DNA of 64,000 nt from Negativicutes bacterium (lineage in GTDB: Bacteria; Bacillota; Negativicutes; UBA1444): positions 224,001 through 288,000 of the forward strand of contig CAXXIN010000018.1 in assembly GCA_963665275.2 (NCBI GenBank). Reading direction: 5' to 3'. This document shows positions 7,300 through 29,645 of the stretch, one piece after another. Below the pieces are notes generated by a model. It had not been told where the DNA came from and did no database searches. It saw only the letters and a program-made list of their open reading frames with translations. Position 1 is the stretch's first letter, and every line of letters starts with the position of its first letter. The position numbers and the translations under genes are program-made.

Positions 7300-7305
7300 C
7301 CTTAA

Positions 7306-7546: not shown

Positions 7547-7585
7547 TAATTTCATACTAGCAAATAAATTTATGAGGTGAGCGCA

Positions 7586-9363: not shown

Positions 9364-9419
9364 CGTGGAACGTCCCAGCAGTGCTCAAATTAATAATTAA
9401 TAACGGGAGGAAAAAGAAT

Positions 9420-10460: not shown

Positions 10461-10761
10461 AAATGGCTGGAAGAAAGTAAGCCGACACCAGCATTGATTC
10501 GGCGCCAAAAAATCAGCGGGATATTAATTTGGCCCGGACCAGATATCTTGCTGGATCCGGGTATTTCTTTCTTCTGAATGAAAAGCAATATATACATTAC
10601 ATTGACAAACGAAAGAGAAAAATTGCTGATGTCATTAATTTGAGCAAAGCTGATAGTTAATGTGCATTTATTTGGCACAAATAATTGGATTGATATTTTA
10701 AAATGAAAGTAAAGTTATACAATTAGGTGCAATTTTCAAAAAAAACAAAACAATAATTGTT

Positions 10762-10777
10762 TGGCATAGTTATTGCA
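10762..10777 (+). promoter_or_regulatory. sigma54 promoter upstream of the MFS/SDR genes
   Basis: TGGCATAGTTATTGCA. Confidence 0.8.
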
Positions 10778-11090
10778 TAAATAGTTGAAAAGAATCTGTT
10801 AATTAGTTAATGCCACCATAACTAAGAACGGGAGGAGCTATCTGCGGCTAATGAGCAAGGTGTTATGATGGGTTCAATAAGTGCAGTGGCAATGAGAAAG
10901 GAGGTATTTTAATAGCCGGGTACGGAAGAAACTTCGACTTCAATCGTGTGAGATAATGAGTTTGGTGGTAACGGGCAGTTTTAAAACTGTTAACTGAGTT
11001 GAGTGACGATGCACAAGGATTAACAATTAAGTGGCTTTTTAAATAAGATATCTTGTGGCTTTCGAGCGGAATAATTAATACGGAGGTATC

Positions 11091-12362
11091 GTGATGAAAA
11101 TATCAGGCGTTGAAATTTCCGGTAATCAATGGAAGAGTCTGATGGGAGCCAGTTTTGGCTGGACACTGGATGCTATGGATTGGATGATGTTGGCTCTTGC
11201 CCTTCCCTTGATTCGTGCTACTTTCGATGTCAGCTTGGCGCAGGTTGGCTTGTTGGCGACTGCAACGCTGGGCGGCGCAGCCTTGGGTGGGATTTTCGTC
11301 GGGATGCTGGCCGACTATATGGGGCGCGTCAAGGTCCTCATGATTACCATGCTCTGGTACGGTATTATGACTGCAGCTTGCGGTTTCGCCCAAAGCTACG
11401 AACAGCTGCTCATCCTCCGTTTCATCTGTGGAATCGGACTTGGCGGCGAATGGGGAGTCGGCGCAGCGTTGGTAACGGAGTACTGGCCGGAAAATCTTCG
11501 GTCGAGAGCGACTTCTTTCGTTCACAGCGGTTGGCCTGTCGGTTATGGATTGGCTTCGTTGGCTTACATGTACGTTGTTCCCATTTATGGTTGGAGATCC
11601 TTGTTCTTCATCGGCATTATACCGGCGTTCCTGGCCATTTGGGTTCGTTACTCGGTTCCTGAACCGGAAGCCTATGTTGAGGCCCAGAAGAAACGTGCTG
11701 ATGCTGAAAAGGCTGGAAATGCGGAAGCAACGAAAGCACCCTTGCGTGTACTTTTTTCAGCCGAACATCGTCGGCGCACGTTCGTGGCCTGCCTTCTGAC
11801 TACGGGCGCCCTGATGGCATATTGGGGATCAGCCAGCTGGCTGCCTTCCTACTTGGCCACGACCAGGGGCTTGGATGTCGTTAAGACCGGCGGTTTCTTG
11901 ATCATTTTGAACATCGGCGCTTTTTTCGGTTATCAGTTCTTTGGCTGGGTGGCAGATACCTACGGTCGCAGGGCATCCTTTATGCTAGGGATTACTGGTT
12001 CGATTGTCGTTACATTGGTTTATGTTTCTATCAGCGATAATGCGGCGTTAATGTGGTTCGGTCCGTTATTTGCCTTTGTCACTTATGGATTCTTCGGGCC
12101 TTTCGGATCATTCCTGGCAGAGTTGTTCCCGCCCGAGATTCGGGCTACAGCGGCAAGTCTGTGCTTCAATGTCGGACGCGGCATGTCCATGCTCTCGCCT
12201 TTGCTTATTGGAGCTTTCGCGTCAAATTATGGACTCGCGTATGGCCTCGGGCTCACCGCTGTGTTCAACCTGTTAGGTTTAGTTGCGGTTTTCCTGTTGC
12301 CTGAAACAAGAAACCTCGGGGCTGCTATTGCAAAAAAAGTAGCTGCGTCGAATAAAGCCTGA
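11091..12362 (+). CDS. MFS transporter (carboxylate/aromatic acid:H+ symporter-like)
   Basis: GWTLDAMD, LADYMGRV, GIGLGGEW...EYWP...R, ELFPPEIRATA and LPET. Confidence 0.92.
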   Translation: MMKISGVEISGNQWKSLMGASFGWTLDAMDWMMLALALPLIRATFDVSLAQVGLLATATLGGAALGGIFVGMLADYMGRVKVLMITMLWYGIMTAACGFAQSYEQLLILRFICGIGLGGEWGVGAALVTEYWPENLRSRATSFVHSGWPVGYGLASLAYMYVVPIYGWRSLFFIGIIPAFLAIWVRYSVPEPEAYVEAQKKRADAEKAGNAEATKAPLRVLFSAEHRRRTFVACLLTTGALMAYWGSASWLPSYLATTRGLDVVKTGGFLIILNIGAFFGYQFFGWVADTYGRRASFMLGITGSIVVTLVYVSISDNAALMWFGPLFAFVTYGFFGPFGSFLAELFPPEIRATAASLCFNVGRGMSMLSPLLIGAFASNYGLAYGLGLTAVFNLLGLVAVFLLPETRNLGAAIAKKVAASNKA

Positions 12363-12709
12363 CCCATAAGCCAAGAAGGGCTGTGTTGAAACTTTGGTTT
12401 CTGCACAGCCTTTCGTTTTAATGACAGCAAATTAGTCTGCAGGCGAGCATAGCCAGTAGTGGCACGCAAGATTTGACATATTCGATCGGAAATTTTGAGC
12501 AAGTGTTTTTAATATCTTTGGATTGCGAATCATATTGGTAAGTTATTCTGGCGTTGACCTGATCGTGGCGATGAAAAAAGTGCAATTGCCAGAATAATTA
12601 ACAATTTGTAAATCATGTGTTCAATTATTTAACAGTCAAGCTGGAACTGCTGCAGATTATCAAATCTCAGCCATTCTTCGGAAAAATTTGTAAGTGGGGG
12701 GCATGAATT

Positions 12710-13447
12710 GTGATTTTAAGAGACAAAGTGGCGGTAGTCACGGGCGCAGGGCAGGGAATCGGTGAAGCGATCGCAATGGCATTCGCGATTGCAGGGGCTT
12801 CGATTGTTGTAGCAGACATTAATTTTGACAATGCAAAAAAAGTTGCTTCCCAGTTGGCTACAGTGCATAAAATAGCAGCTGAAGCGGTGAAGGTAGATGT
12901 CAGCGACAATGAAAGTGTTGTTAAAATGATTGCTTTCGTCCAAGAAAAATTTGGCCATATCGATATTTTGGTCAACAATGCCGGGATCGTCCAGGCAGCA
13001 ACAACGTTTGAAGACATAAGCGACAAAGATTGGGATCGAGTGCTTGGTGTAAATCTTCGAGGAACGATCAATTGCTGCAAGGCCGTTATCCCCTCGTTCA
13101 AGGAAAGAAAATATGGCAAAATTATCAACCTGGCTTCTCTTGCCGGAGAAGTCGGCGGCATCGCTGTTGCACCGACCTATGCAGTCAGCAAAGCGGCAAT
13201 CATCTGCCTGACGAAATCGTTGGCCAAGTATCTGGGGCCCTACCAGGTGAATGTGAATGCAGTTGCTCCGGGATTCATCAAAACCACGATGACTGCAGAT
13301 CTTAATTACAATCCAGACACAGTGCCGATGAAACGGCTGGGTGAAGCTGCGGAAGTTGCCGATCTGATCCTTTATTTGGCGTCGGACCGCTCAAGCTATA
13401 TTACCGGGGCAACTATGGATGTGAATGGCGGCGTGTACATGAAATAG
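12710..13447 (+). CDS. SDR-family oxidoreductase
   Basis: TGAGQGIG, NNAG and YAVSK catalytic motif. Confidence 0.93.
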   Translation: MILRDKVAVVTGAGQGIGEAIAMAFAIAGASIVVADINFDNAKKVASQLATVHKIAAEAVKVDVSDNESVVKMIAFVQEKFGHIDILVNNAGIVQAATTFEDISDKDWDRVLGVNLRGTINCCKAVIPSFKERKYGKIINLASLAGEVGGIAVAPTYAVSKAAIICLTKSLAKYLGPYQVNVNAVAPGFIKTTMTADLNYNPDTVPMKRLGEAAEVADLILYLASDRSSYITGATMDVNGGVYMK

Positions 13448-13476
13448 TCCAAACTCATTCGAAAGGGGGTGTAGGT

Positions 13477-14262
13477 ATGGAACTGGGTTTAACGAACCGG
13501 GTAGTGGCTGTCACCGGTGGCGCCGCAGGCATAGGCAAGGGGTGTGTACAGGCTTTCCTGCAAGAGGGGTGCCGGGTGGCTATCTGCGGGCGTAGCCTGG
13601 AAAAACTGGCAGCAGCGAAGGCGGAGTTCCGTCAGATGGGTTATGAAGTTTTGACCTGCGTAGCAGATGTCACGCAAAGTCAGGAGCTTGTGGATTTTGC
13701 CGCTAAAGTGGAAGCCGAATACGGTGGGATTGACGTTTGGATCAACAATGCAGGCAAATTTATGATTAAAAATCTGCTGGATATGAGCGAAGATGAATGG
13801 GACGAAATTTTCAAGCAAAATGTTAAGTCTGTTTTCATCGGCGCAAAAGTTGCAGCCCCCCATTTGATTAAGCGGGGTGGCGGAGTCATCTTCAACGCAT
13901 CCTCTTATGCCTCCATCATTCCATCGGCAAGCGTGGGCGCGTATGCCGCGACCAAGGCGGCGGTATCCAGCATTAACCGCGTTTTGGCTGCTGAGCTTGC
14001 ACCGTTTGGAATTCGCGTGATCGCATACGCTCCTGGCGTCGTAGTGACAGATATGAGTGCCGCAATGATTTCGGCCAATGGCCCCAAAATAGCTGAGCAA
14101 AGTGCTTTAAACCGTCTTGGCGTGCCTGGCGATGTTGCCAACTATCTTGTATTTCTTGCTTCTGACGCCGCCAGCTATATCACAGGGACTACTGTGGAGA
14201 TAAGCGGTGGCAAGTTATGTGTTCAAAACCCAGCTCAACCCTGGAACCAAAGAAAGGGGTAG
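13477..14262 (+). CDS. SDR-family oxidoreductase
   Basis: TGGAAGIG, NNAG and YAATK. Confidence 0.93.
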   Translation: MELGLTNRVVAVTGGAAGIGKGCVQAFLQEGCRVAICGRSLEKLAAAKAEFRQMGYEVLTCVADVTQSQELVDFAAKVEAEYGGIDVWINNAGKFMIKNLLDMSEDEWDEIFKQNVKSVFIGAKVAAPHLIKRGGGVIFNASSYASIIPSASVGAYAATKAAVSSINRVLAAELAPFGIRVIAYAPGVVVTDMSAAMISANGPKIAEQSALNRLGVPGDVANYLVFLASDAASYITGTTVEISGGKLCVQNPAQPWNQRKG

Positions 14263-14268
14263 ATAAGG

Positions 14269-15309
14269 GTGAAATGTGCAGTTTTGACCGGAAACGAAAA
14301 ATTTGAGCTCAAAGAGACGGAATTAAGAGTTAAGCGAAATCCAATCATTAAAGTGACTCATGTTGGAGTATGCGGTACGGATCTTTCTTATTGGAAAGAC
14401 GGTGAAAACTATAAAGGCATGGTCATTGGGCATGAGTATGCAGGGATTATTGAAGACCCCGGGACGACGGGCTTGTTCAAACAAGGGGACCGAGTTGCAG
14501 GCTATACGCAGAACGTTTACGATGAACCATGCGGTCATTGCGAGAATTGCCTGCAAGAAAATTTCGATCAATGCACCAATCGAAAAATCCTGACCTGGAA
14601 GGGCGGGGAACTCAGTCACCCTGGGGCGTATTGCCAATTCACCACTTGGTTTCCCCGGAGCCTGTTTAAGTTGCCTGATCAAGTATCCACTGCTGAAGCG
14701 GCGCTCATTGAACCGATTACAGTAGCGCTGCATGCGGTGATGCTTACTGAGGTTAAACCCGGTGATAAAGTGCTGATTTTAGGCGGGGGAATTATCGGCC
14801 TGGGTGTTGCGGAGTGGGTGAGGAGCTTCGGCGCAGCAGAAATCACAATTTCTGAAATCAACCAACAGAAGATTGAAGTAATCACGAACTATCAGATTGC
14901 CGAGCATGTAATTCAAGCTGATGCCCCTGACTTGGACGATCAATTTTGGGCAGCCTCCGATGGAGGTTATGATATTATCTTTGACTGCGCCGGGATAGCA
15001 TCAGCCGTTAATGCAGGCATTAGAGCCTTAAAGAAAGAAAAGAAAAAGCAAATCACGGCGATTGCTCTACCACGCAGTGAGTTGGCAATAAATTATCGGG
15101 AACTGGTGTTAAGAGAGATTGTCCTGCGTGGAAGCAAAGGCCACACAGCGGATGAATTTAAGGCTGTTCTTCGTGCTGTTGGCGACAACCGGATCAATTT
15201 GGAAAAATATATTTCCAAACGCATTAAGTTTGAAAATGTTCAACAGGGATTCGAGGAATTAAAGAAGAGCGGCGGGTTGGAAACCAAGGCGATCCTCGAA
15301 ATGGAATGA
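14269..15309 (+). CDS. Zn-dependent MDR alcohol/diol dehydrogenase (butanediol/sorbitol dehydrogenase-like)
   Basis: CGTD, GHEYAG, structural Zn motif CxxCxxC-x7-C and GGGIIG. Confidence 0.9.
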   Translation: MKCAVLTGNEKFELKETELRVKRNPIIKVTHVGVCGTDLSYWKDGENYKGMVIGHEYAGIIEDPGTTGLFKQGDRVAGYTQNVYDEPCGHCENCLQENFDQCTNRKILTWKGGELSHPGAYCQFTTWFPRSLFKLPDQVSTAEAALIEPITVALHAVMLTEVKPGDKVLILGGGIIGLGVAEWVRSFGAAEITISEINQQKIEVITNYQIAEHVIQADAPDLDDQFWAASDGGYDIIFDCAGIASAVNAGIRALKKEKKKQITAIALPRSELAINYRELVLREIVLRGSKGHTADEFKAVLRAVGDNRINLEKYISKRIKFENVQQGFEELKKSGGLETKAILEME

Positions 15310-15334
15310 CCGGGAGCTAAATTGAGAGGAAAGG

Positions 15335-15814
15335 GTGATTTTCACAATGAAAAAACTAAAAGATTTTGGGATTGAACATGTGGGCTTTATCGTTAAAGAT
15401 TTAGATGCTGCAGTTGATCACTTTAAAAACCTTTATGGCATAGAGGAATTTCAAATTTATAATTTTTCGCCAGGCAGGGCGTGGTCTTATGGCAAAGAGG
15501 TTGAAAATTACGCCCTGAAGATTGCAATGTGCGGTGTAAATGATGTAAGCAGCGGGATTGAAATTATTCAGCCTGTTTCAGGCGAGGGCGTGCACAAGGA
15601 CTTTATCGCAGAGGGAAACACCGGACTGCATCACATTGCCTTTAAGGTTGATGACTACGATTACTGGCGGGAGTATTTTGTTGCCAAAGGTTCACGGTTT
15701 GTTTTCGAATCAGAAACAGAGGATGCGGTCAATGGCTACCGACGTTGTTTTTATGCAGAAGATAAGGAAAACAATATGGTGTATGAAATCAAAGAGACGG
15801 CGCATTTTAGATAA
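15335..15814 (+). CDS. VOC-family protein (methylmalonyl-CoA epimerase/glyoxalase-like)
   Basis: IEHVGFIVKDLDAA, IEIIQP, GLHHIAFKVDD and terminal YEI. Confidence 0.88.
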   Translation: MIFTMKKLKDFGIEHVGFIVKDLDAAVDHFKNLYGIEEFQIYNFSPGRAWSYGKEVENYALKIAMCGVNDVSSGIEIIQPVSGEGVHKDFIAEGNTGLHHIAFKVDDYDYWREYFVAKGSRFVFESETEDAVNGYRRCFYAEDKENNMVYEIKETAHFR

Positions 15815-16043
15815 TCGGAGCGTGCAGTTTCGGCAGGTTGACTGAGTAAAGCGGGCCCTGGAGCACTTGGCGTGTTTCGGGCTCACTTTTTTTTGCATGT
15901 TCGATGACACGCTCATTGCCAGGAGGTGATAGTGTTAACAAATTCTGCAATAACGCAATCAAGTGCTCAATTTTAGGACAGCGATCCTTTGGCGGAAATC
16001 ATTTAACGCTGAAAAAGGCTTATACTAGCTGAAATGTATCAGT

Positions 16044-16059
16044 TGGCATGATTTTTGCA
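16044..16059 (+). promoter_or_regulatory. sigma54 promoter of 4hbD-lipB-lipA
   Basis: TGGCATGATTTTTGCA. Confidence 0.85.
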
Positions 16060-16099
16060 ACAGTGAAGATTATAAACTAATATGAATGGAGATGTTCAC

Positions 16100-17215
16100 A
16101 TGTATAACTTTAAATTGGCAACGGAAATCAAAATGTTCGATTCCATCGATGAATTTGTAACAGCCATGGATTTCACCGAACGCGATCTGGTCGTCACCAA
16201 TGCTCCGGTATATGAGCCCCAATTAAACGGGTATAATCTGAAATGTCGGGTAGTCTTCCAGGAAAAATACGGCAATGGTGAACCGAACGATCGTATGATC
16301 AATGCTATCCTTCAGGATTTGCGCGGATACGAATTCGACCGCGTATTTGCCATCGGTGGAGGGACCGTTATTGACGTCGCCAAGATTATTTCTTTATCTG
16401 GCGTTGAAGATGTACTGGATGCCCTATATGGACGGATTTCCATAACACGGACACGCAAATTGATGGTTATTCCCACTACCTGCGGCACAGGCAGCGAAGT
16501 GACCAATATTGCAATCCTTGAGGATACTCAGGCCCATGTCAAGAAAGGCATCGTCGGTCCGGCGATCTTCCCGGACGCGGCAATTCTGGTGCCGGATTTG
16601 GTCAAAGGTCTGCCATACAAATTCTTTGCATTCAGTTCCATCGATGCTTTGATCCATGCCATAGAATCCTATTTGGCGCCAGCTTCGAACAGCATTACGG
16701 AAATGTTTGCGGTCAGTGCAATGCAAAGTATCATTGCCGCCTATCGCGACATCGCCCAGAATGGACCGGCCGCTCAAGCGAAAAATATCGGTAAAGTGTT
16801 ACTTGCCAGTACCAGTGCCGGCATCGCTTTCGGCAATACCGGCGTCGGCGCCGTTCACGCCATGTCTTACCCTCTGGGCGGGAAATATCACGTTCCTCAT
16901 GGTGAAGCTAATTATGCTTTCCTGGATATTGTGCTGAGAAAATATGAGCAACTGAATCCCAATGGAAAAATCCAGAGTCTAAAACATATATTGGGGGATT
17001 GTCTGGGAGTTGTCGGCGACGATCAAGTCATTGCGGCCTTGGCCGAACTTCTGAACCGGATTATTCCCCTCAAGAGCTTACAGGAGTATGGCGTTCAGGA
17101 GAATGAACTGGGAAACTTTGCCGAGGCGGCTATGGCGCAGGAACGGCTGATGAAAAATAATTACAAACCGTTAAGCCTGCAAGACGTGACCAAAATGTAT
17201 CAATCCCGCTACTGA
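16100..17215 (+). CDS. 4hbD: 4-hydroxybutyrate dehydrogenase (Fe-containing ADH family)
   Basis: FQEKYGNGEPND is characteristic of clostridial 4HbD. Also AIGGGTVID, PTTCGTGSEVT and HAMSYPLGGKYHVPHGEANY. Confidence 0.85.
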   Translation: MYNFKLATEIKMFDSIDEFVTAMDFTERDLVVTNAPVYEPQLNGYNLKCRVVFQEKYGNGEPNDRMINAILQDLRGYEFDRVFAIGGGTVIDVAKIISLSGVEDVLDALYGRISITRTRKLMVIPTTCGTGSEVTNIAILEDTQAHVKKGIVGPAIFPDAAILVPDLVKGLPYKFFAFSSIDALIHAIESYLAPASNSITEMFAVSAMQSIIAAYRDIAQNGPAAQAKNIGKVLLASTSAGIAFGNTGVGAVHAMSYPLGGKYHVPHGEANYAFLDIVLRKYEQLNPNGKIQSLKHILGDCLGVVGDDQVIAALAELLNRIIPLKSLQEYGVQENELGNFAEAAMAQERLMKNNYKPLSLQDVTKMYQSRY

Positions 17216-17225
17216 TTCGAAATAA

Positions 17226-17888
17226 ATGACAAGGCGATGTGCGTTGATCAAGTCAGGACAACTGACTTATGAAGAAGGGTTGCGATTACAACAGAAAGCT
17301 TGGGATTCTGTGGCGGCAGGGGAATGGGACGGCGCTCTTATATTACTGGAGCATTCCCCGGTAGTTACCCTGGGGAGAAATCATGCCACCCCGGAGTTAC
17401 TGCTGTCGTCGGAAGAATATCGAGAGCGGGGCATTGAGGTAGTGCATTGCAAGCGCGGCGGTAAAGCAACCTGCCATAATCCAGGCCAATTGGTTGGTTA
17501 TCCCATCCTGAATTTAACGAACTGGCAACAAGATAGTCATTGGTATTTGCGTCTACTTGAACAAGCCGTCATAAACACGGTGGGAAAATTCGGCATAGTC
17601 GCTGGACGCAAGGAGGTCTATACAGGGGTATGGGCCAACGACCGAAAAATTGCCGCCATCGGGGTTGCTATTCGCCGCTGGATTACCAGTCATGGATTTG
17701 CCTTGAATGTGCATAACGACCTAGACCTTTTTTCGGCTATTGTGCCTTGTGGCATCAGCGAATTCGGCGTGACCAGTATGCTGGCGGAGGGTGTTGCCGG
17801 ATTATCTGTGGGAGAGGTTGCGGATGTTCTTATCCGTGAAATGGAAGTAGCGCTGCAATGTTCTTTTGTCACCACGGAAATAGAATAG
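17226..17888 (+). CDS. lipB: lipoyl(octanoyl) transferase
   Basis: LLEHSPVVTLGR, RGGKATCHNPGQLVGYPI, KIAAIG, HGFALN and IVPCGI. Confidence 0.93.
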   Translation: MTRRCALIKSGQLTYEEGLRLQQKAWDSVAAGEWDGALILLEHSPVVTLGRNHATPELLLSSEEYRERGIEVVHCKRGGKATCHNPGQLVGYPILNLTNWQQDSHWYLRLLEQAVINTVGKFGIVAGRKEVYTGVWANDRKIAAIGVAIRRWITSHGFALNVHNDLDLFSAIVPCGISEFGVTSMLAEGVAGLSVGEVADVLIREMEVALQCSFVTTEIE

Positions 17889-17914
17889 AATGAGTCAGCG
17901 CACTTAGAACGGAG

Positions 17915-18793
17915 ATGGTTCAACAGATGGCAACAATGGACAAGAAAAAACAAGAACGCCCACAGTGGCTGAAACAGCGGGTAACTGCCGCGGGGGTGAC
18001 TGCCGTCAGTGCCCTGATGCGTGATTTCGAACTCCATACAGTATGTCAGAGTGCTGATTGCCCCAATCTGGGGGAGTGCTTTGGCGCCCGGACGGCTACC
18101 TTTCTGATATTGGGTGGTGTTTGTACCAGAAATTGCCGCTTCTGTTCGATAGCCAAAGGAGTACCGCAGCAACTGGATATGAATGAACCTGAACGGGTTG
18201 CGCAGGCGGTAAAGACCCTGGGACTGAAGCATGCGGTCGTAACTTCCGTAACACGGGATGACCTTCCAGACGGCGGGGCGGGACAATTCGTCGCTTGTAT
18301 CCAAAAGATACGGCAAGTGAACCCAGGCACAACCGTGGAGGTACTGGTTCCGGATTTTGGAGGGGATGAGGTCGCCTTGATGGCAGTGTTGGAAGCAAAT
18401 CCTGATGTATTCAACCACAACGTCGAAACTGTTCCCAGATTGTATCCCACGGTGCGACCGGAAGCGGAGTACCAACGTTCTCTCGGTGTTCTGCAGCAAG
18501 CAGCCCAATACGATTCCATCATCACTAAAAGTGGCATTATGCTGGGTTTGGGTGAAACGGAAGCAGAAGTTATCCAGCTCCTAAAGGACTGGGCGGCCAA
18601 CGGCGTGCAGGCGATAACCATCGGCCAGTACATGCAGCCATCGCCGGCGCACCTGGAGATCGTGGAATATATTCATCCGGATCAGTTCAAGAATTATGAA
18701 AAAATCGGTTACGACATGGGTTTTCGACAGGTTGTATCGGGCCCCCTGGTACGTAGCTCATACCATGCAGCAGCATTGTTGAAGGAGGTTTAA
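17915..18793 (+). CDS. lipA: lipoyl synthase (radical SAM)
   Basis: CQSADCPNLGEC, CTRNCRFC, NHNVETV and GPLVRSSYHA. Confidence 0.96.
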   Translation: MVQQMATMDKKKQERPQWLKQRVTAAGVTAVSALMRDFELHTVCQSADCPNLGECFGARTATFLILGGVCTRNCRFCSIAKGVPQQLDMNEPERVAQAVKTLGLKHAVVTSVTRDDLPDGGAGQFVACIQKIRQVNPGTTVEVLVPDFGGDEVALMAVLEANPDVFNHNVETVPRLYPTVRPEAEYQRSLGVLQQAAQYDSIITKSGIMLGLGETEAEVIQLLKDWAANGVQAITIGQYMQPSPAHLEIVEYIHPDQFKNYEKIGYDMGFRQVVSGPLVRSSYHAAALLKEV

Positions 18794-18947
18794 TCGAGAA
18801 CTGTAAATTGCATGGTTGGGCTACTCTAGATGATTTGTATCTACAAGGCGAATCCGTTATAATAAATACGTCCTAAATATCGCAATTGAATGACAATTGC
18901 GATTGTTCACCTGCGGTGACCTAGCAGCTAACGGGGAGGTTTGGTAG

Positions 18948-20900: not shown

Positions 20901-20935
20901 TACTCACTGTCAAATTAATTGAATCTGGCATACGC

Positions 20936-20966
20936 AAAAACGTCCTGTGATACAGGACGTTTTTTT
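20936..20966 (+). terminator. intrinsic terminator
   Basis: aaaaacgtcctgt-gat-acaggacgttttttt. Confidence 0.85.
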
Positions 20967-21129
20967 GTGCTCAAACAACGGCGAAGGATTGATCAATTTT
21001 TGAACAATAAACTGTTTAATGCGAAAAATATGAACAAGTCAGACGGATTTAAAAGATGTTGAGGGAAGCGTTCCAACGAAATAATGGCTATTCAGCCGGA
21101 TTCTACAAGAAAAAACATTAACCCGGTTT

Positions 21130-21145
21130 TGGCACGATTATTGCA
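21130..21145 (+). promoter_or_regulatory. sigma54 promoter of the acoABCL-like/abfD operon
   Basis: TGGCACGATTATTGCA, near-perfect consensus. Confidence 0.9.
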
Positions 21146-21249
21146 TAAGTGTTACAACAATGAATAAAAAATGAGCAGAAGGGGGCTGGCATCAGATCGG
21201 TCCGGGTAAGAAGCTGTTTTAATCGTACGCTTTGAAAGGATGGGGTAAC

Positions 21250-22224
21250 ATGGCAGTAAAAAAGTATGAAAAAAAATTCCTCGGGGACTTGTATTCAACG
21301 ATGGTTCGGATCAGATTATTTGAGGAGCAGGTATTGGAATTCTACAAATACGGCAAGATGCCGGGCCTGGCACATCTGTATATCGGTGAAGAGGCAGTGG
21401 CGGCGGGTGCTTGTGCTGCACTCGACTCCGGCGATTATGCCGGCAGCACTCATCGCGGTCATGGACACGTAATTGCCCAGGGGGCTGACGTGAACCGTAT
21501 GATGGCTGAAATATTGGGCAAGAAAGATGGTCAATGCGGCGGCAAGGGTGGTTCCATGCACATCATGGACATGAGCAAGGGAATTCTCGGGGCCAACGGG
21601 ATTGTTGGCGGCGGCATACCCATTGCAACCGGCGCTGCTTATAAAGCTAAAGTAATGGGTACCAACCAAGTCGTCATCTCTTTCTTCGGGGACTCCGCGA
21701 GCAACGAGGGTACTTTCCACGAAAGTCTAAATATGGCTTCAGCTTGGAAGTTGCCGGTCGTTTATATTATCGAAAATAATCTCTATGGCATCTCCGTAGG
21801 GATTGAACGCGTTACTAACGTGAAAAATCTGTCCGACCGTGCTCATGGATATGGCATCAAGGGTATTTCGATCGATGGCAACGACGTATTGAAAGTCTAT
21901 GAGACGGTTAAGGAAGCGGTGGACTTTGCAAGAGCCGGCAATGGGCCGACTTTGATCGAGTGCAAAACCTATCGCTGGAAAGGGCATCATTCCGGGGACC
22001 CTGCCACGGCCTATCGAACCCGGGAGGAAGAAGATGCCTGGAAAGAAAAATGTCCCTGGAAATGCTTCCGTGGCTATCTGGAGACAAAAGGAAACTACAA
22101 GGGAGCGGAACTCGACCAGATGGAAGCTGATATTGCTGCGGAAATAAAGGCAGCGGCGGAATTTGCGGAAAAGAGCCCATACCCGGACCCTGCGGAAGCC
22201 TATACGGATATTTTTGCAGAATAG
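21250..22224 (+). CDS. TPP-dependent dehydrogenase E1 alpha (AcoA-like)
   Basis: HLYIGEEA, THRGHGH, GKGGSMH, TPP motif GDSASNEG...ENN and TYRWKGH. Confidence 0.92.
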   Translation: MAVKKYEKKFLGDLYSTMVRIRLFEEQVLEFYKYGKMPGLAHLYIGEEAVAAGACAALDSGDYAGSTHRGHGHVIAQGADVNRMMAEILGKKDGQCGGKGGSMHIMDMSKGILGANGIVGGGIPIATGAAYKAKVMGTNQVVISFFGDSASNEGTFHESLNMASAWKLPVVYIIENNLYGISVGIERVTNVKNLSDRAHGYGIKGISIDGNDVLKVYETVKEAVDFARAGNGPTLIECKTYRWKGHHSGDPATAYRTREEEDAWKEKCPWKCFRGYLETKGNYKGAELDQMEADIAAEIKAAAEFAEKSPYPDPAEAYTDIFAE

Positions 22225-22242
22225 AGAACGGAGGTCATAATA

Positions 22243-23235
22243 ATGGCGCAAGAAGTAAAAATGAAAGAAATTACCTATGCTCAAGCGGTTTGCGAGGCAT
22301 TAGACGAAGAAATGGCCAGGGATTCCAGTGTCGCATTGCTCGGTGAAGATGTGGGGATCATTGGTGGAAATTTCAAAACTTCGGTGGGATTACGTGATAA
22401 ATACGGCGACTGGCGTGTGAAAGACACGCCCATATCAGAGGCAGGCTTCGTGGGCATGGGGGTGGGGATGGCACTCACCGGTATGCGTCCGGTAATTGAA
22501 TTAATGTTCTGCGACTTTTTGGGGGTCTGCATGGATCAAATCTTCAATCAGGCAGCCAAAATCCGTTATATGTCAGGCGGCCAGGCCCAAGTTCCCTTGA
22601 CCGTCAGAATGCCGATGGGAGGCGGGCGCTCCTCGGCCGCCCAGCATTCCCAGAGTTTGCAGGCATGGGTGGCGCATATCCCGGGGCTCAAAGTCGTCCT
22701 GCCATCTTCCGCGGCGGAAGTGAAAGGTCTGCTAAAAACCGCGATCCGCGACAACAATCCGGTTATATTCTTCGAACATAAAATGCAATATAACAAAACA
22801 TTTTCTGTTCCGGTAGGAGAATATACCATTCCTTTCGGCAAGGCGAATATTGTCCATGTCGGTGACCAACTGACCATTGTCGCCACTTCGGATTTGGTGC
22901 TGAAGGCCAATGAAGCTGCGGTGGAATTGGCCAAAGATGGAGTTTTTGTTGAAGTGATCGACCTTCGTACCCTGGTGCCTCTTGATCGCCAGACCATCAT
23001 CGATTCGGTCAAGAAAACCGGCAAGTTGCTGATCCTGGACGAAGGCCATATCCAGTATGGCGTTCACGGAGAAATTGGCATGGGCATCATGGACGATATA
23101 TTCTACGATCTGGATATGCCAATCATGCGGATGGGCACGGGACAGACTCCCATTCCGTTCAGCCCGGCGCTGGAATTCCCGATTCTGGTGGATGTAAAAA
23201 AAATCTATGACAAAGCAAAAGAAATGACAAAATAG
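22243..23235 (+). CDS. TPP-dependent dehydrogenase E1 beta (AcoB-like)
   Basis: LGEDVG, DTPISE, AAQHSQS and IDLRTLVPLD. Confidence 0.92.
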   Translation: MAQEVKMKEITYAQAVCEALDEEMARDSSVALLGEDVGIIGGNFKTSVGLRDKYGDWRVKDTPISEAGFVGMGVGMALTGMRPVIELMFCDFLGVCMDQIFNQAAKIRYMSGGQAQVPLTVRMPMGGGRSSAAQHSQSLQAWVAHIPGLKVVLPSSAAEVKGLLKTAIRDNNPVIFFEHKMQYNKTFSVPVGEYTIPFGKANIVHVGDQLTIVATSDLVLKANEAAVELAKDGVFVEVIDLRTLVPLDRQTIIDSVKKTGKLLILDEGHIQYGVHGEIGMGIMDDIFYDLDMPIMRMGTGQTPIPFSPALEFPILVDVKKIYDKAKEMTK

Positions 23236-23274
23236 GCGACGCAGGGATGTACGGTCGCAGAGGAGGGAATATCG

Positions 23275-24630
23275 TTGGCTGAGTTTATCATCATGCCCAA
23301 ACTTGGATTCAATATGGATGTTGGCGAGCTGGTTAAATGGCGTAAGGCCGAAGGCGATACGGTCAAAAAAGAGGATGTCGTGTTCGAGATCCAGACGGAC
23401 AAGACAACGATGGAAATTGAATCGACAATCAGCGGGGTACTCTTGAAAATCCTGGTGGAAGAGGGACAAACCGTGCCGGTTATCATGCCGGTTTGTATTG
23501 TCGGCGAAGCTGGCGAGGATATCAGCGCCATGATTGCCGAAGCCGGGAGGCAACTCGGGATTGAGTCCACTGTGGCTGCGGAGCCGGCAGTAGAAGTTTC
23601 TGCCATTGCCGCACCAGAGGCAACCGTGGCAGCGGTCGTGCCGGGGGATTTGAAAATATCGCCCCGGGCGCAGAAGTATGCGACCGAGCACGGCTTGGAC
23701 CTGAGCAGCGCGGCCATTGTGGGAACGGGTTTCCAAGGCGGCATTATGCAACGGGATTTGGAACAGGCGGCGAAAGTTGGCAAAATCACACCACTGGCGA
23801 AAAAAATTGCTGCCGCAGCACAAGTTGACGTGACTGCCGTGAGTGGAACAGGCATCGGCGGCAAGATTGTGAAAGCGGATATTGAAGCTGTAACCAAAGT
23901 GCCCAAGGCAGCGGTCAATATTCCTGGCAGCGAAATCGAAGTTCTGCGTACACTTTCATACAGCGGGATGCGGAAAATAATCGGTGATCGCTTGTCCCAA
24001 AGCAAGTTCACGGCGCCGCATTTGTATTTCACTGCTGCAGTTGATGTTACGGAGCTGATCAAGTTCCGGGAAATGGTGAACAAATCCCAGCAGCAAAAAG
24101 TATCGTACAATGATTTTGTGATCGCGGCTGTATCTCAGGCACTGCAAAAACATCCGGAAATTAACTGCTCTCTCCAAGGTGAAAAAATTGTGCAGTACAA
24201 GGATGTCAACATTGGTATGGCAGTGGGAATGGAAAGCGGACTCATTGTTCCGGTCATCAAAAAAAGTCAAAGCAAGAAATTGACCGCCATTGCAGCCGAG
24301 ACGCAGGCCTTGGCCGAAAAAGCGCGCACCGGCAAGCTACTTCCACAGGATTATCAAGGCGGAACTTTTACGGTCAGCAATTTGGGCATGTTCGGCATTG
24401 AAAACTTCACGGCAATCATTAACCCGCCAGAGGCGGCTATTCTGGGTGTCGGCGCACTCAGGAAAACTCCAGTGGTCATCAGCAAAGATGGCGAAGATCA
24501 AATTGAGGTGCGCACGATCATGAACATCACCCTTTCGATCGATCACCGCCTGATTGACGGGATGAACGCTGTGAAGTTCATTAAAGACGTGCAGGGGCTG
24601 CTGGAAAATCCCTTGATCATTTTGATCTAA
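23275..24630 (+). CDS. dihydrolipoamide acyltransferase E2
   Basis: Lipoyl domain (TDKTTME), two peripheral-subunit-binding repeats, SNLGM and DHRLIDG. Confidence 0.93.
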   Translation: MAEFIIMPKLGFNMDVGELVKWRKAEGDTVKKEDVVFEIQTDKTTMEIESTISGVLLKILVEEGQTVPVIMPVCIVGEAGEDISAMIAEAGRQLGIESTVAAEPAVEVSAIAAPEATVAAVVPGDLKISPRAQKYATEHGLDLSSAAIVGTGFQGGIMQRDLEQAAKVGKITPLAKKIAAAAQVDVTAVSGTGIGGKIVKADIEAVTKVPKAAVNIPGSEIEVLRTLSYSGMRKIIGDRLSQSKFTAPHLYFTAAVDVTELIKFREMVNKSQQQKVSYNDFVIAAVSQALQKHPEINCSLQGEKIVQYKDVNIGMAVGMESGLIVPVIKKSQSKKLTAIAAETQALAEKARTGKLLPQDYQGGTFTVSNLGMFGIENFTAIINPPEAAILGVGALRKTPVVISKDGEDQIEVRTIMNITLSIDHRLIDGMNAVKFIKDVQGLLENPLIILI

Positions 24631-24652
24631 TTGATCTAACAGGAGTGAAAAT

Positions 24653-26026
24653 ATGAAACAGTTTGATATTGTAGTGGTCGGTGGCGGGCCTGGCGGATAT
24701 GTTGCCGCCATTAAGGCAGCTCAGGCAGGCAAGAAGGTCTGTCTGGTCGAGAAGAATAAACTTGGCGGTGTTTGCCTGAACTGGGGATGCATCCCCACTA
24801 AAACCTTACTTAAAAGTGTTGAGGTGTTGGATTCTATTCGGCATAGTGCCGACTTCGCTGTCACAGGTCTTGACACTTCTGCCGCTGCCATCGATATGGT
24901 GAAATTGCAGAAACGCAAAAACAGTATCGTTCAGAAGCTTACCGGTGGCGTAGGCATGTTGTTGAAGGCCAATGGCGTAACTGTAGTCAATGGGCAAGGG
25001 ACCTTCGTTGATGCCAATACTCTGGCCGTCGGGCCAGAGCAGATCAATGCCGATAAATTTATTATTGCCACCGGCTCCGTGCCTGTCAAACCGCCCATTC
25101 CCGTCAGCGGAACAGCGCCTGTTATCGGCAGCGATGAAGCCCTGGATTTGACAGAGGTACCCGCAAGCATGGTGATTATCGGCGGTGGGGTTATCGGTAT
25201 TGAGTTTGCTTATCTGTATGCCAGTCTGGGCGCTAAAGTGACGGTAATCGAGTTAATGGACCGCATCTTGCCGATGGTGGATAAGGAAATTACCGTTGAA
25301 GTGACAAAAATGCTGAGCGGCATGGGGATCAAGATCCTCACACAAGCCAAGGTAACCAAAATCGACGGCAACACGGTTCATTACGAGCTGGCGGGCGCCG
25401 AGGCCAGCGCAAGCGGCGACAAAATCCTGATGTCCGTCGGGCGGGCGCCAAATACGGAAAGCCTGAATCTGGAAGGCATCGGGATCGCAATGAACCGCCG
25501 TGCTATTAAAGTTAACCGGGCTATGCAAACCAATGTACCCGGCATTTATGCCATTGGGGATGTGAATGGTACGTCCATGCTGGCCCATACCGCGTCAATG
25601 GAGGGGATAGTGGCCGTAGAAAGCATTCTCGGTCACGAGGCATCGCTGGATTATGATAAGATTCCTTCTTGTATCTATATTCAGCCGGAGATCGCGGCAG
25701 TCGGCCTGACGGAAGAGCAGGCGCGGGAAAAATATGGCAACGTGCTGGTCGGGAAGTTCCCGATTGCCGCTAACGGCAAAGCCATGGTGCAAGGCGAAAC
25801 CCGCGGCCTGATCAAGGTAATACTGGAACCGAAATTTCAAGAAATCCTGGGTGTCCATATTTACGGACCCCATGCTACTGATCTAATCGCCGAAGTGGCA
25901 TTAGCAATGAATCTGGAAGCAACAGCAGAAGAGGTTGCCCTGTCGATTCATCCCCATCCGACGATTTCGGAAATTGTTCCTGAAGCATTTCATGCTGCTT
26001 TGGGTAAAGCCATTCACAACATTTAG
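24653..26026 (+). CDS. lpdA: dihydrolipoyl dehydrogenase E3
   Basis: GGGPGGY, GGVCLNWGCIPTK and HPHPTISE. Confidence 0.95.
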   Translation: MKQFDIVVVGGGPGGYVAAIKAAQAGKKVCLVEKNKLGGVCLNWGCIPTKTLLKSVEVLDSIRHSADFAVTGLDTSAAAIDMVKLQKRKNSIVQKLTGGVGMLLKANGVTVVNGQGTFVDANTLAVGPEQINADKFIIATGSVPVKPPIPVSGTAPVIGSDEALDLTEVPASMVIIGGGVIGIEFAYLYASLGAKVTVIELMDRILPMVDKEITVEVTKMLSGMGIKILTQAKVTKIDGNTVHYELAGAEASASGDKILMSVGRAPNTESLNLEGIGIAMNRRAIKVNRAMQTNVPGIYAIGDVNGTSMLAHTASMEGIVAVESILGHEASLDYDKIPSCIYIQPEIAAVGLTEEQAREKYGNVLVGKFPIAANGKAMVQGETRGLIKVILEPKFQEILGVHIYGPHATDLIAEVALAMNLEATAEEVALSIHPHPTISEIVPEAFHAALGKAIHNI

Positions 26027-26052
26027 CGAAAATAAAGGAGCGTGGCATTCTT

Positions 26053-27501
26053 ATGATTACTGCACAACAATATGAAGATAGTCTCCGCAAGCTGAACCTC
26101 AAAGTCTATCTGCAAGGGGAACGGGTGGAAAACCCGGTGGATCACCCGATCATCCGCCCCTCTTTAAATTCAGTCAAAATGACCTATGAACTGGCGCAGG
26201 AACCCCAGTATGAAGATCTGATGACAGCTACATCCCACTTGACCGGGAAGAAGATCAATCGATTCTGCCACCTACACCAATCGACTGAAGATCTGGTGAA
26301 AAAAGTCAAAATGCAGCGTCTGCTGGGCCAAAAGACCGCCGCCTGCTTCCAGCGTTGCGTGGGCATGGATGCAATCAATGCCGTGGACAGTGTAACATTT
26401 GAAATGGATAAAAAGCTTGGAACGCCTTATCATAGTCGCTTTGAAAAATTCCTGCTGAAGATGCAGGAAGAAGACATGACCGTCGACGGCGCCATGACCG
26501 ATCCAAAAGGCGACCGCGGTTTGTCCCCCAGCCAGCAGGCCGATCCCGACCTGTTCGTCCATGTCGTGGAACGACGCGAAGACGGCATCGTGGTCAGCGG
26601 CGCCAAAGCGCATCAGACCGGCGCGATCAACTCGCACTGGATACTGGTCATGCCAACAATCGCCATGGGAAAAGAAGACGCCGATTACGCAGTCAGTTTC
26701 GTCGCGCCTGCCGATGCCGAAGGCGTTTTCTACATCTATGGACGCCAATCCTGCGACACCCGAAAACTGGAAGGCGGAACCATTGACGTAGGAAACAAAC
26801 AGTTTGGCGGACACGAAGCGCTGATGGTCTTCGATAATCTGTTCATTCCCTGGGAGAACGTTCTCATGTGCGGCGAATATGAATTCAGCGGCGCTCTGGT
26901 CGAGCGGTTCGCCGGCTATCACCGCCAAAGCTACGGCGGCTGCAAAGTCGGTGTAGGCGATGTCCTCATCGGGGCGGCGGCTCTGGCGGCCGACTATAAT
27001 GGCGCACACAAAGCTTCGCATCTCAAGGACAAACTCATTGAGATGGTGCATCTGAACGAAACTTTATACGCCTGCGGCATTGCATGCTCGGCAGAAGGTA
27101 CGAAAACCGCTTCCGGCAACTACATCATTGATCTTATGCTGGCTAATGTCTGCAAACAGAACGTAACCAGATTTCCTTACGAGATTGCCCGCCTGGCCCA
27201 GGATATCGCCGGTGGACTGATGGTCACGATGCCTTCGGAAAAAGACCTCCGTCATCCGGAAATCGGCAAGGTGGTAGAGAAATATTTCAAAGGCATCGCT
27301 TCGGTTCCGACGGAGAACCGCATGCGCATCCTGCGTCTGGTCGAAAACCTGACCCTCGGAACGGCCGCAGTCGGGTATCTGACCGAATCAATGCACGGCG
27401 CAGGTTCACCGCAGGCGCAGCGCATCATGATCGCCCGGCAGGGTAATATGGAGCATAAAAAGGAACTGGCCAAGGCGATTGCCGGAATCCCCGCCAAATA
27501 A
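26053..27501 (+). CDS. abfD: 4-hydroxybutyryl-CoA dehydratase/vinylacetyl-CoA isomerase
   Basis: CFQRCVGMD, AMTDPKGDR, GAKAHQTG, YHRQSYGGCKVG and ESMHGAGSPQAQ. Confidence 0.95.
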   Translation: MITAQQYEDSLRKLNLKVYLQGERVENPVDHPIIRPSLNSVKMTYELAQEPQYEDLMTATSHLTGKKINRFCHLHQSTEDLVKKVKMQRLLGQKTAACFQRCVGMDAINAVDSVTFEMDKKLGTPYHSRFEKFLLKMQEEDMTVDGAMTDPKGDRGLSPSQQADPDLFVHVVERREDGIVVSGAKAHQTGAINSHWILVMPTIAMGKEDADYAVSFVAPADAEGVFYIYGRQSCDTRKLEGGTIDVGNKQFGGHEALMVFDNLFIPWENVLMCGEYEFSGALVERFAGYHRQSYGGCKVGVGDVLIGAAALAADYNGAHKASHLKDKLIEMVHLNETLYACGIACSAEGTKTASGNYIIDLMLANVCKQNVTRFPYEIARLAQDIAGGLMVTMPSEKDLRHPEIGKVVEKYFKGIASVPTENRMRILRLVENLTLGTAAVGYLTESMHGAGSPQAQRIMIARQGNMEHKKELAKAIAGIPAK

Positions 27502-27543
27502 GCATCTCTTGGAAATAAGAAGCTGTTATTGGAAGGGGTATCG

Positions 27544-27825
27544 ATGGATAAAGTCACCCAGGTCATCGAACAAAAAATCCGCCCATTATTGCAGGAGCAC
27601 CAGGGTGACCTTGAATTGGTGGAGATCACCGCTGACGGTTATGTGAAAGTACGGCTGACCGGGGCATGCGCTGCATGCCCCGGAGCCCAGCAAACGCTGT
27701 CCGAGATCGTCGAAGCCAAGTTGACGGAAGCCTGTCCGGAAATCAGAGGAGTAATCGCTGTCCACCAAGTCAATGAGGATTTAATACAAGAGGCTTTGAA
27801 GATTTTGCGCAAGGACCGCAAATAG
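27544..27825 (+). CDS. NifU/NfuA-like Fe-S carrier
   Basis: IRPLLQEHQGDLELV...LTGACAACP. Confidence 0.88.
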   Translation: MDKVTQVIEQKIRPLLQEHQGDLELVEITADGYVKVRLTGACAACPGAQQTLSEIVEAKLTEACPEIRGVIAVHQVNEDLIQEALKILRKDRK

Positions 27826-27940
27826 GATCGATCATAGTTAATATGCAAAAAGCAGGTCAGTATTAAGTTTTGTGGTAGATGTGACCGGAGAATTGACCTT
27901 GCTGATATAGCTCCAAATTAATAAAAAATGGGGGATTATC

Positions 27941-29248
27941 TTGAGAAATTGGAGAGACCTCAGTAAAGGGAAAATAGTGTCGGCGACCGAAGCCGTGAAA
28001 GCCATAAAATCAGGTGACAGAGTCGTAATCGGGCATGCCTGCGGCGAACCGCAGACTTTGGTCGCAGCGATGATGGACCGGGCGTCGGAACTGAAAAATG
28101 TAGAAATCGTGCACATGGTGGCGATGGGACCGGCCAACTATGCCCAGCCTGGCATGGAAGAAAGTTTTCACCATAATGCTCTGTTTGTTGGCGGATCAAC
28201 GCGCAAAGCAGTGGCGGAAAAACGTGCGGATTATACCCCTTGCTTTTTTTCAGAGATCCCACGTTTGTTTCGTGAAGGGTATTTGTCTGTTGATGTGGCA
28301 TTGGTTCAAGTGACACCGCCAGATGATACGGGTCATTGTAGTTTGGGAGTTTCAGTCGACTATACCTATGAGGCGATAAAACAAGCGCGAATCGTAATTG
28401 CACAGGTGAATCGAAATCTGCCCCGCACTTGCGGACAAAAAGTCCATTTGGATGAGCTTGATCTTTTAGTCGAACAAGAGGAGCCGTTAATCGAACTTCA
28501 ACCACCGAAGATTGGCAACATAGAAAAAGCAATTGGTGAAAATATCGCGACTTTGGTAGAAGACGGAGCTACCTTGCAACTCGGGTATAGGGGCAATTCC
28601 TGACGCGGCGTTATTGTTCCTTGGCGGCAAAAAGGACCTGGGAATTCATTCGGAAATGTTTTCTGATGGCGTGGTGGCATTGGCAGAGAGCGGCGTCATA
28701 AACAACCGTAAAAAAAGTATGCATCCAGATCGGTTTGTAGCCACTTTCCTGATGGGAACGCGACGCCTCTATGATTTCGTTGATAATAATCAAGCAGTGG
28801 AGTTGCATCCGGTAGATTTCGTAAATGATCCCTGTATAATCAAGATGCAGCATAAAATGGTATCGATCAACTCGGCGCTGCAAGTGGATCTTGCAGGCCA
28901 AGTGAACGCCGAATCGATTGGCTACCGTCAATTCAGCGGTACAGGCGGACAGGTCGATTTTATTCGCGGCGCCAGCATGTGCGAAGGGGGAAAGTCGATC
29001 ATAGCCTTCTCATCTACGGCAGCCGGCGGCTCCATCTCAAGAATCACGACTGCATTAGAATGCGGGGTCTGCTGTTACTACGACGAGAAAATGATGTGCA
29101 TTATGTGGTGACCGAATACGGTATCGCAGATCTGCGGGGGAAAACGCTGCGCAGCCGCGCAAAGGCCTTAATTGAGATAAGTCATCCGAATTTTCGGGTA
29201 ACGTTGATGAAAGAAGCAACTGAAAAAAGGAATATTATAAAAAAATAA
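27941..29248 (+). CDS. 4-hydroxybutyrate CoA-transferase (AbfT/Cat2-like), split by +1 frameshifts at ~28586, ~29066 and ~29090
   Basis: The three frames join to GATLQLG|IGAIP...LGIHSEMFSDG...SGTGGQVDF...VTTTRNDVHYVVTEYGIADLRGK. The frameshifts may be sequencing errors. Confidence 0.85.
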
Positions 29249-29645
29249 CCGCACAAATAGTGTTGAGTATTGCGGAAATTACTAATTGGCAGCGTTTCGG
29301 ACGGAATTTCCCCAATGATTTTTAAAAGCATAAGTCGACGAATTCGTGCGTTTTGTTTGCCTGGACTTCGGTTCAGGCTGATTTTTTATTTTCATGGGGC
29401 GCATATTCAATTCGAATTGACCTTACAAAAATTGTCCGGAAAAAGTGTTGGTAAGTCCAATAACGTTATCCGCGCTGCTGGTTGGATTGGGTGCCAGCAT
29501 GCGAGAAAATTTTCCCTGCGGGTTGCCGCCTTTGCCGGCTGGGTCAGGTAGGCATCTGAATTGCGTCGCTGTGCGCGGGCTCCAGCCCGGCTGCGCCGAT
29601 CTTCCCGCTCCGTGCTCGCGCCACCGTTGCAACAGTTTCCGATAA

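Follow-up and report, generated by a model that had tools for sequence, protein, structure and literature searches.

The analyzed window, a 64-kb stretch of DNA from a bacterium of the class Negativicutes, contains at positions 10630-29248 a gene cluster in which a complex of the acetoin dehydrogenase (Aco) type, dependent on thiamine pyrophosphate (TPP) and lipoamide, is joined to the enzymes of the 4-hydroxybutyrate (4HB) pathway. The linkage of these two gene sets is real, conserved in a few lineages and mechanistically plausible, and the cluster is probably a sigma54 regulon for the catabolism of hydroxy-carboxylic acids by a route not previously described. According to the scheme favored by the sequence data, to which we assign a probability of about 0.5, a hydroxy-acid would be oxidized to an acyloin acid, the complex would cleave the latter to acyl-CoA and succinic semialdehyde (SSA), and SSA would be converted via 4HB to crotonyl-CoA. 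Of the schemes in which all conserved genes have a role, this is the simplest.

Gene content and transcription units

Genes were called as open reading frames (ORFs), and the proteins of the window were then searched against Pfam and NCBIfam profiles. All sixteen genes named in a preliminary description of this DNA were recovered on the + strand with the same content, order and coordinates. The E1-E2-E3 complex has its functional motifs throughout (TPP motif, lipoyl-Lys, His of DHRLIDG, E3 disulfide). The cluster consists of the following features.

10762-10777, +, sigma54 -24/-12 box P1 (TGGCAT-N5-TTGCA), about 310 nt upstream of the MFS gene
11091-12362, +, MFS transporter of the aromatic-acid/sialate:H+ symporter type, an organic-anion importer (Pfam MFS_1)
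12710-13447, +, SDR1, secondary-alcohol dehydrogenase (Pfam/NCBIfam)
13477-14262, +, SDR2, second short-chain dehydrogenase (Pfam/NCBIfam)
14269-15309, +, Zn-MDR of the polyol/threonine-dehydrogenase group (Pfam/NCBIfam)
15335-15814, +, VOC (glyoxalase-fold) protein (Pfam/NCBIfam)
15857-15881, +, terminator-like hairpin after the VOC gene (terminator scan)
16044-16059, +, sigma54 box P2 before the Fe-ADH gene (strict pattern)
16082-17215, +, iron-type alcohol dehydrogenase (Fe-ADH), predicted 4-hydroxybutyrate dehydrogenase of the 4HbD type (match to PDB 30SM and conserved residues)
17226-17888, +, LipB octanoyltransferase (Pfam)
17915-18793, +, LipA lipoyl synthase, radical SAM (Pfam)
18948-20900, +, GAF-PAS-AAA+ sigma54 enhancer-binding protein (EBP) with HTH_8, AcoR-like (Pfam/NCBIfam)
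21130-21145, +, sigma54 box P3 before E1alpha (strict pattern)
21232-22224, +, E1alpha (PF00676, 300.7 bits; TPP motif GDS...NN)
22243-23235, +, E1beta (PF02779 and PF02780)
23275-24630, +, E2 dihydrolipoamide acyltransferase (lipoyl-Lys motif TDKTT, catalytic DHRLIDG)
24653-26026, +, E3 dihydrolipoamide dehydrogenase (disulfide CLNWGC, HPTISE)
26053-27501, +, AbfD, 4-hydroxybutyryl-CoA dehydratase/vinylacetyl-CoA isomerase (PDB 1U8V, 787 bits)
27529-27825, +, NifU-like Fe-S scaffold protein, a regular companion of abfD (Pfam)
27941-29248, +, AbfT, 4-hydroxybutyrate CoA-transferase of the AcetylCoA_hydro family (frame-split in the record)
29359-29378, +, terminator-like hairpin and T-run ending the operon, the first such site after the E3-abfT run

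On the + strand of the whole window the strict sigma54 pattern is matched only at 10762, 16044 and 21130, each time just upstream of a transcription unit, and the three boxes flank the single gene of the GAF-PAS activator. A looser pattern gives 13 matches with 12.3 expected, which is the chance level, so that the evidence lies in the position of the boxes and in the strict match alone. The genes for E1, E2 and E3 run directly into abfD-nifU-abfT: the gaps between E3, AbfD, NifU and AbfT are 26, 27 and 115 bases, the E3-abfD junction is confirmed by contigs of two sequencing runs (X1 and X2), and the first terminator-like site after them is at 29359. Transcription of this series from one sigma54 promoter, claimed in the preliminary description, is therefore supported, as is the co-transcription of 4hbD with lipB-lipA, which form one unit both here and in Sporomusa rhizae DSM 16652. 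In the latter genome sigma54 boxes stand at the three equivalent places, the activator is 64% identical to that of the window, and a block of roughly 50 bp upstream of P3 is common to both promoters. A search for a common activator operator (12-mers, six promoter regions) yielded, beyond this orthologous block, only a loose TTGAGCA-like word, which is too weak to be retained.

No sigma54 box was found by the pattern scan before the block SDR1-SDR2-MDR-VOC, and a hairpin with a T-run, read by eye, lies 3' of the MFS gene, so that co-regulation of this block is not established. Between P1 and the start codon of the MFS gene there is an untranslated leader of about 300 nt (10790-11090); an Rfam search over 10000-30500 gave one match, at chance level, and none in this leader.

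In the database record abfT is split into three frames, which the preliminary description overlooked. Contigs of runs X1 and X2 (from two studies, not certainly independent, as one may be the source of the assembly) were compared with the window over 25900-29300. They omit one base each at 28583, 29059, 29088 and 29223 and show no other differences; all four surplus bases lie in homopolymers within the last 670 bases of the gene. Without them abfT is a single frame of 431 amino acids, and its product aligns with the S. rhizae AbfT over the full length and gap-free, with 70.5% identity. As the contigs of both runs lack the four homopolymer bases, the split is an assembly error, and the gene is intact in the organism. 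A pseudogene in a decaying 4HB branch, with a linkage of no present function here, would explain the three frames of the record but hardly this agreement of contigs and open frame, and is very improbable. The overlapping ORF pairs 49722-50249/50098-50877 and 54627-55820/55768-57102 elsewhere in the window might hide similar base errors.

Identity of the 4HB enzymes and recurrence of the linkage

AbfD and AbfT are, by sequence, genuine 4HB enzymes. In the alignment to 1U8V, AbfD conserves the [4Fe-4S] cluster ligands C99, C103, H292 and C299 and the catalytic residues Y296, E257, E455 and T190. The S. rhizae orthologue of AbfT matches the solved 4HB CoA-transferases 3EH7 and 3GK7 with 525.6 and 466.6 bits, respectively.

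The Fe-ADH is too far below the cut-offs of all its NCBIfam matches to be named from them alone, and its best solved relative is Cvir-Hbd2 (PDB 30SM, 325.5 bits). According to excerpts of PMC13495136, Cvir-Hbd2 is a selective 4-hydroxybutyrate dehydrogenase, with metal ligands D181, H185, H252 and H266, residue N270, the carboxylate-recruiting R348, and N34 and Y36 at the NAD ribose; Y256 and R348 are needed for efficiency. Eight of these nine functional residues are kept in the window protein, R348, Y256 and N270 among them, and Y36 is replaced by P. Moreover, N34, Y256, N270, R348 and the four metal ligands are present in all five full-length Fe-ADHs encoded beside such a complex, while none of the four other Fe-ADHs of the source genome has R348. 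Given this distribution, the aldehyde handled beside the complex is most likely SSA and not acetaldehyde.

Known feeders of SSA are the transaminase of gamma-aminobutyrate (GABA) and the succinyl-CoA reductase SucD acting with Cat1. The preliminary description noted the absence of these sources from the window, and this extends to the whole contig, where no match to Aldedh, Aminotran_3 or a second AcetylCoA_hydro was found. Likewise, neither a SucD-type nor a GABA-transaminase gene occurs among the ORFs of at least 110 amino acids, all of them identified, in the metagenome locus L111 (see below). On other contigs of the source genome there are two candidate canonical feeders, namely an Fe-ADH beside a class-III aminotransferase (C12:77500-79817), and a CoA-transferase, an Fe-ADH and a weak Aldedh-family gene near a sigma54 activator (C16:306730-313991).

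The neighborhoods of the 80 closest E1alpha loci from species genomes and of 80 metagenome loci, many of which are short contigs, were checked for 4HB genes. In the first set, S. rhizae and a near-identical metagenome-assembled genome carry E1alpha-E1beta-E2-E3-AbfD-NifU-AbfT. In the second set, there are six further links of E1 genes to 4HB genes. The gene orders are listed below.

L017 (S. rhizae): FeADH-LipB-LipA-EBP / GntP-MDR-VOC / E1a-E1b-E2-E3-AbfD-NifU-AbfT-MBL
L101: E1-E3-AbfD-AbfT-MBL-GntP-FeADH
L111: AbfD-NifU-AbfT ... SDR (52% identity to SDR1)-GntP, divergent activator, E1a-E1b-E2-E3-FeADH-GDSL hydrolase-LplA-LipA
L112: FeADH-E1a-E1b-E2-E3-activator
L107: NifU-AbfT-E1a
L110: a 56% AbfD relative divergent from E1a
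L116: FeADH adjoining E1a

The E1alpha tree comprises 74 rows, i.e. the window and 73 of the 74 loci L016-L057 and L099-L130, one locus being dropped for its short match. Linked loci constitute four of the six rows of the clade that includes the window (97*), the remaining two being contigs of at most 3.1 kb, and five of the eight rows of a second, non-sister clade (L107, L110, L111, L112, L116). The preliminary description had named a lack of conservation elsewhere as grounds for abandoning the idea; the survey demonstrates the linkage in two non-sister clades with different gene orders. Its recurrence in four different gene orders argues for selection rather than one inherited accident.

The accessory genes vary. 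Carboxylate permeases of unrelated types are found in the clusters (MFS in the window, GntP in L017, L101 and L111), and a DASS-type gene is divergent in L112. An SDR1 orthologue (68% identity) directly precedes E1alpha in another genome, G001. The window and S. rhizae have the VOC gene, which is absent from L111 and was not seen in the examined part of L101. The need for three dehydrogenases, assumed in the preliminary description, is not confirmed, as S. rhizae has one MDR and L111 one SDR; in L111, the smallest variant, a permease, one SDR, the complex and the 4HB enzymes suffice. The other part of that interpretation, an Aco-type complex feeding SSA to 4HbD, AbfT and AbfD, is supported by the linkage, the 4HbD signature and the carboxylate permeases.

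Esterase- or lactonase-like hydrolases (MBL, GDSL, PTE) also recur in the clusters. A hydrolase of the metallo-beta-lactamase (MBL) fold, a candidate gamma-lactonase or thioesterase, adjoins abfD or abfT in L017 (18236-18895), L101 (9217-9951) and L001 (12023-12832), with or without the E1 complex, and in L110 another one (1779-2768) is separated from the AbfD relative by about 4 kb.

The locus L045, from a metagenome-assembled genome of the Lachnospiraceae, was considered as a further independent case and downgraded, its 4hbD-abfD-abfT-nifU abutting apparent butyrate-pathway genes. Only hbd- and bcd-like genes were matched among the latter (tblastn), thl, crt and etf being guessed from ORF sizes. 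No Fe-ADH or AbfD was seen in the corresponding stretch of its nearest E1 relatives (E. ramulus type, e.g. L122). The locus (positions 1-20963, also represented by L096) encodes an SDR with an N-terminal extension, a PTE-family hydrolase, a sugar ABC transporter, an aldo-keto reductase and Aco-like E1-E3, then an RpiB-like isomerase, an MDR and a split transketolase, followed by the 4HB genes, and resembles an unassigned sugar or polyol pathway.

Of ten genomes whose E1 belongs to the same large clade but is unlinked, nine have an AbfD of at least 70% identity, compared with three of ten genomes with an E1 of other clades (nine and five of ten, respectively, at E <= 1e-100); this co-occurrence is suggestive only, as it is confounded by taxonomy.

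Proposed route and competing explanations

In the proposed route, a carboxylate permease would import the hydroxy-acid, and the predicted NAD-dependent secondary-alcohol dehydrogenase SDR1 would oxidize it to an acyloin acid, R-CO-CH(OH)-CH2-CH2-COO-. SDR2 and MDR would serve other isomers or relatives of the substrate, and the VOC protein probably racemizes the acyloin acid or shifts its carbonyl via an enediol. The Aco-type complex E1alpha/E1beta-E2-E3, lipoylated by the cluster's own LipB and LipA, would cleave the acyloin acid to acyl-CoA (probably acetyl-CoA) and SSA. The latter would be reduced to 4HB by 4HbD, AbfT would transfer CoA from the newly made acyl-CoA to 4HB, and AbfD, with Fe-S supplied by NifU, would dehydrate 4HB-CoA to crotonyl-CoA. 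What we infer here is how the acyloin acid is cleaved, what R is, in which direction the flux runs, and the roles of VOC (racemization) and of SDR2 and MDR (stereoisomers).

E2 scores 380 bits with acetyltransferase models and 242-257 bits with succinyltransferase ones, and this resemblance weakly favors an acetyl group, hence 4-hydroxy-5-oxohexanoate as the compound cleaved. 4,5-Dihydroxyhexanoate, the substrate suggested in the preliminary description, is only a candidate. The corresponding lactone is another, as are acids of greater chain length that derive from plant lipids and have a 4,5-diol or alpha-ketol group.

PDB and NCBIfam searches with the VOC, MDR and SDR1 proteins gave generic relatives only. 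The nearest solved relatives of VOC are methylmalonyl-CoA epimerases, though weak ones (best PDB match 37 bits), and its assignment as such an epimerase was rejected, since it scores 44 bits with TIGR03081 at a cut-off of 114.95. The MFS transporter matches TIGR00895 (261.8 bits) and TIGR00891 (221.9 bits), both below the cut-off.

Several observations weigh against the proposed route. We are not aware of an acyloin acid with the required structure that is abundant in nature, and the E1 sequence does not separate acyloin-cleaving from 2-oxoacid E1. An orthologous E1 occurs in only four of 401 sampled genomes of the class, and the 11 further genomes examined from the genus lack the orthologous cluster and have no E1alpha closer than 55%. 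There is no 4HB gene within reach of E1 in 77 of the 80 genome loci and in 74 of the 80 metagenome loci, many of these being short contigs. In L045 the neighbor is a butyrate operon, and the E1 loci most closely related to that of L045 lack the linkage. Finally, VOC, SDR2 and MDR are not conserved across the cluster variants, and abfD-nifU-abfT exists also as a stand-alone sigma54 module in relatives from the genus and in S. rhizae.

The last observation makes a fusion of two independent modules possible, joined by rearrangement under one activator: an acetoin/2,3-butanediol system, with the SDRs and MDR as butanediol dehydrogenases and AcoABCL yielding acetyl-CoA and acetaldehyde, and a separate 4HB or gamma-butyrolactone module of abfD-nifU-abfT and 4hbD. 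Consistent with it, SDR1 and SDR2 match meso-2,3-butanediol dehydrogenase models, although below the cut-off (206.8 and 176.4 bits, cut-off 270). In the genus, the abf copies examined stand apart from any E1-E3, the full abfD-nifU-abfT being found only in G007, where, as in S. rhizae, it is a solitary module with a sigma54 activator of its own; none of the other genomes of the genus has the E1 orthologue. In Clostridium, excerpts of Nie et al. 2019 (PMC6615313) describe a predicted XanR regulon, abfD-nifU-hyp-ach-golB, separate from acoABCL. The recurrence across clades, on the other hand, weighs against a chance fusion, as two E1 clades that are not sisters have gained or kept the linkage. 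Moreover, it is 4hbD, and not abfD alone, that abuts E1 or E3 in L111, L112 and L116, in the window as in S. rhizae the transcription unit of 4hbD also includes the complex's lipoylation genes, and carboxylate permeases would be needless for neutral acetoin. Two independent modules are an unlikely explanation.

A 2-oxoacid dehydrogenase, the alternative given in the preliminary description, seems equally doubtful. Here 5-hydroxy-2-oxopentanoate would be decarboxylated oxidatively straight to 4-hydroxybutyryl-CoA for AbfD; its source would be a 2-hydroxy or omega-oxo acid, Fe-ADH would make the 5-hydroxyl from 2,5-dioxopentanoate, and the putative AbfT would be a terminal butyryl-CoA:acetate CoA-transferase. 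E1alpha and E1beta score best with pyruvate dehydrogenase (PDH) models, the nearest solved relatives of E1 are 2-oxoacid E1s, and E1beta passes the PDH subfamily model NF006667 (361.4 bits, cut-off 321), while the PDH equivalog cut-offs are missed by E1alpha (TIGR03182, 363.5 vs 393.85) and E2 (TIGR01349, 380.1 vs 445). The E1 motifs YRxxGH and NNxYG differ between clades, but no specificity can be read from the differences. The E1 clade of the window is separate, with good support, from Bacillaceae loci with the same, aco-like gene order, whose E1alpha is 50-53% identical.

Carboxylate permeases in the clusters also agree with a 2-oxoacid substrate, and in a paralogous E1-E2-E3 cluster on contig C16 of the source genome the TRAP carboxylate transporter genes dctP-dctQ-dctM stand between E1beta and E2, which makes a 2-oxoacid such as 5-hydroxy-2-oxopentanoate possible. 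The best NCBIfam match of the S. rhizae AbfT is butyryl-CoA:acetate CoA-transferase, again below the cut-off, while its scores with the solved 4HB CoA-transferases speak for the 4HB assignment. No cluster variant encodes a dehydratase able to make 2,5-dioxopentanoate, and the residues conserved in the Fe-ADH are those of an enzyme for which the excerpts of PMC13495136 give an about 100-fold preference for C4 over C5.

As to the paralogues, further E1alpha/E1beta-E2(-E3) clusters of the source genome lie at C16:9208-21010, C15:45802-53947 and C3:183692-190415, each with its own adjoining lipA and/or lipB; LipA paralogues are among these neighbors, and two of the three clusters have an AcoR-like activator. 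A second AbfD (91% identity) and NifU end an operon at 2838-12950 of L007 (G000:C16:40001-60000), which also contains a sigma54 activator, two subunits of an HgdA/B-like 2-hydroxyacyl-CoA dehydratase, an activator ATPase, a crotonase, a thiolase and a 3-hydroxyacyl-CoA dehydrogenase.

A separate sigma54 unit (5887-10460) precedes the cluster in the window; its activator (5887-7299) and a box at 7531 are followed by genes for a beta-keto-acid cleavage enzyme (BKACE), a 3-hydroxyacyl-CoA dehydrogenase (HCDH) and a PanE-like reductase. The counterparts of BKACE and HCDH in G003 (L009), with 81% and 71% identity, adjoin an activator and a 61% AbfD relative.

Relation to known systems and implications

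The AcoABCL system with AcoR, known from Bacillus subtilis and Clostridium and reportedly also from Pelobacter carbinolicus, has the same order of E1alpha/E1beta, lipoyl-E2 and E3, and likewise a sigma54 promoter, a nearby enhancer-binding protein and SDR/MDR neighbors. Unlike it, the operon of the window runs on into abfD-nifU-abfT, the regulon includes a 4HB dehydrogenase and a carboxylate permease, and the predicted aldehyde product is SSA rather than acetaldehyde.

The 4HB route of Clostridium aminobutyricum, C. kluyveri and C. viride employs the same three enzymes, 4HbD, AbfT/Cat2 and AbfD, whose signature residues are found here, but GABA transaminase and SucD/Cat1 are absent from the cluster, and a TPP/lipoamide complex is present instead. 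In mammals with a deficiency of succinic semialdehyde dehydrogenase, 4,5-dihydroxyhexanoate arises from SSA and a TPP-bound C2 unit; the bond formed there is the one proposed to be cleaved here, as it joins an acetyl-level carbon to the aldehyde carbon of SSA. The mammalian reaction is a synthetic carboligation side reaction, whereas the cleavage proposed here is oxidative. The XanR regulon, as far as excerpts of PMC6615313 describe it, contains a sigma54-dependent abfD-nifU-CoA-transferase unit similar to the solitary abf modules of G007 and S. rhizae, and XanR and acoABCL form separate regulons in Clostridium, whereas here there is one operon with one promoter.

Literature searches found no bacterial catabolism of 4,5-dihydroxyhexanoate. 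A description of acetoin dehydrogenase joined to 4HB enzymes or SSA was not found in the full-text literature either, subscription journals and supplements being outside the search. Both halves of the cluster are textbook modules, and what is new, as far as this search shows, is their coupling.

As a tentative extension of the proposed route, the "acetoin dehydrogenases" of a whole clade in strict anaerobes might act not on acetoin but on gamma-hydroxy-delta-oxo acids, cleaving these to acyl-CoA and SSA, and the VOC gene might be the first for an enzyme that racemizes or isomerizes acyloins; to our knowledge, acetoin racemase is an orphan activity. The idea is testable in S. rhizae DSM 16652, which is cultured and has a complete genome with the full regulon. 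If SSA is indeed released by the complex, many genes of Clostridia and Negativicutes may be wrongly annotated as "acetoin dehydrogenase" or "pyruvate dehydrogenase E1", and the 4HB route, used in predicting butyrate production in gut and sediment, would have a new feeder beyond the GABA and succinate entries. The substrate range of the acetoin dehydrogenase family would in that case extend to carboxylated acyloins.

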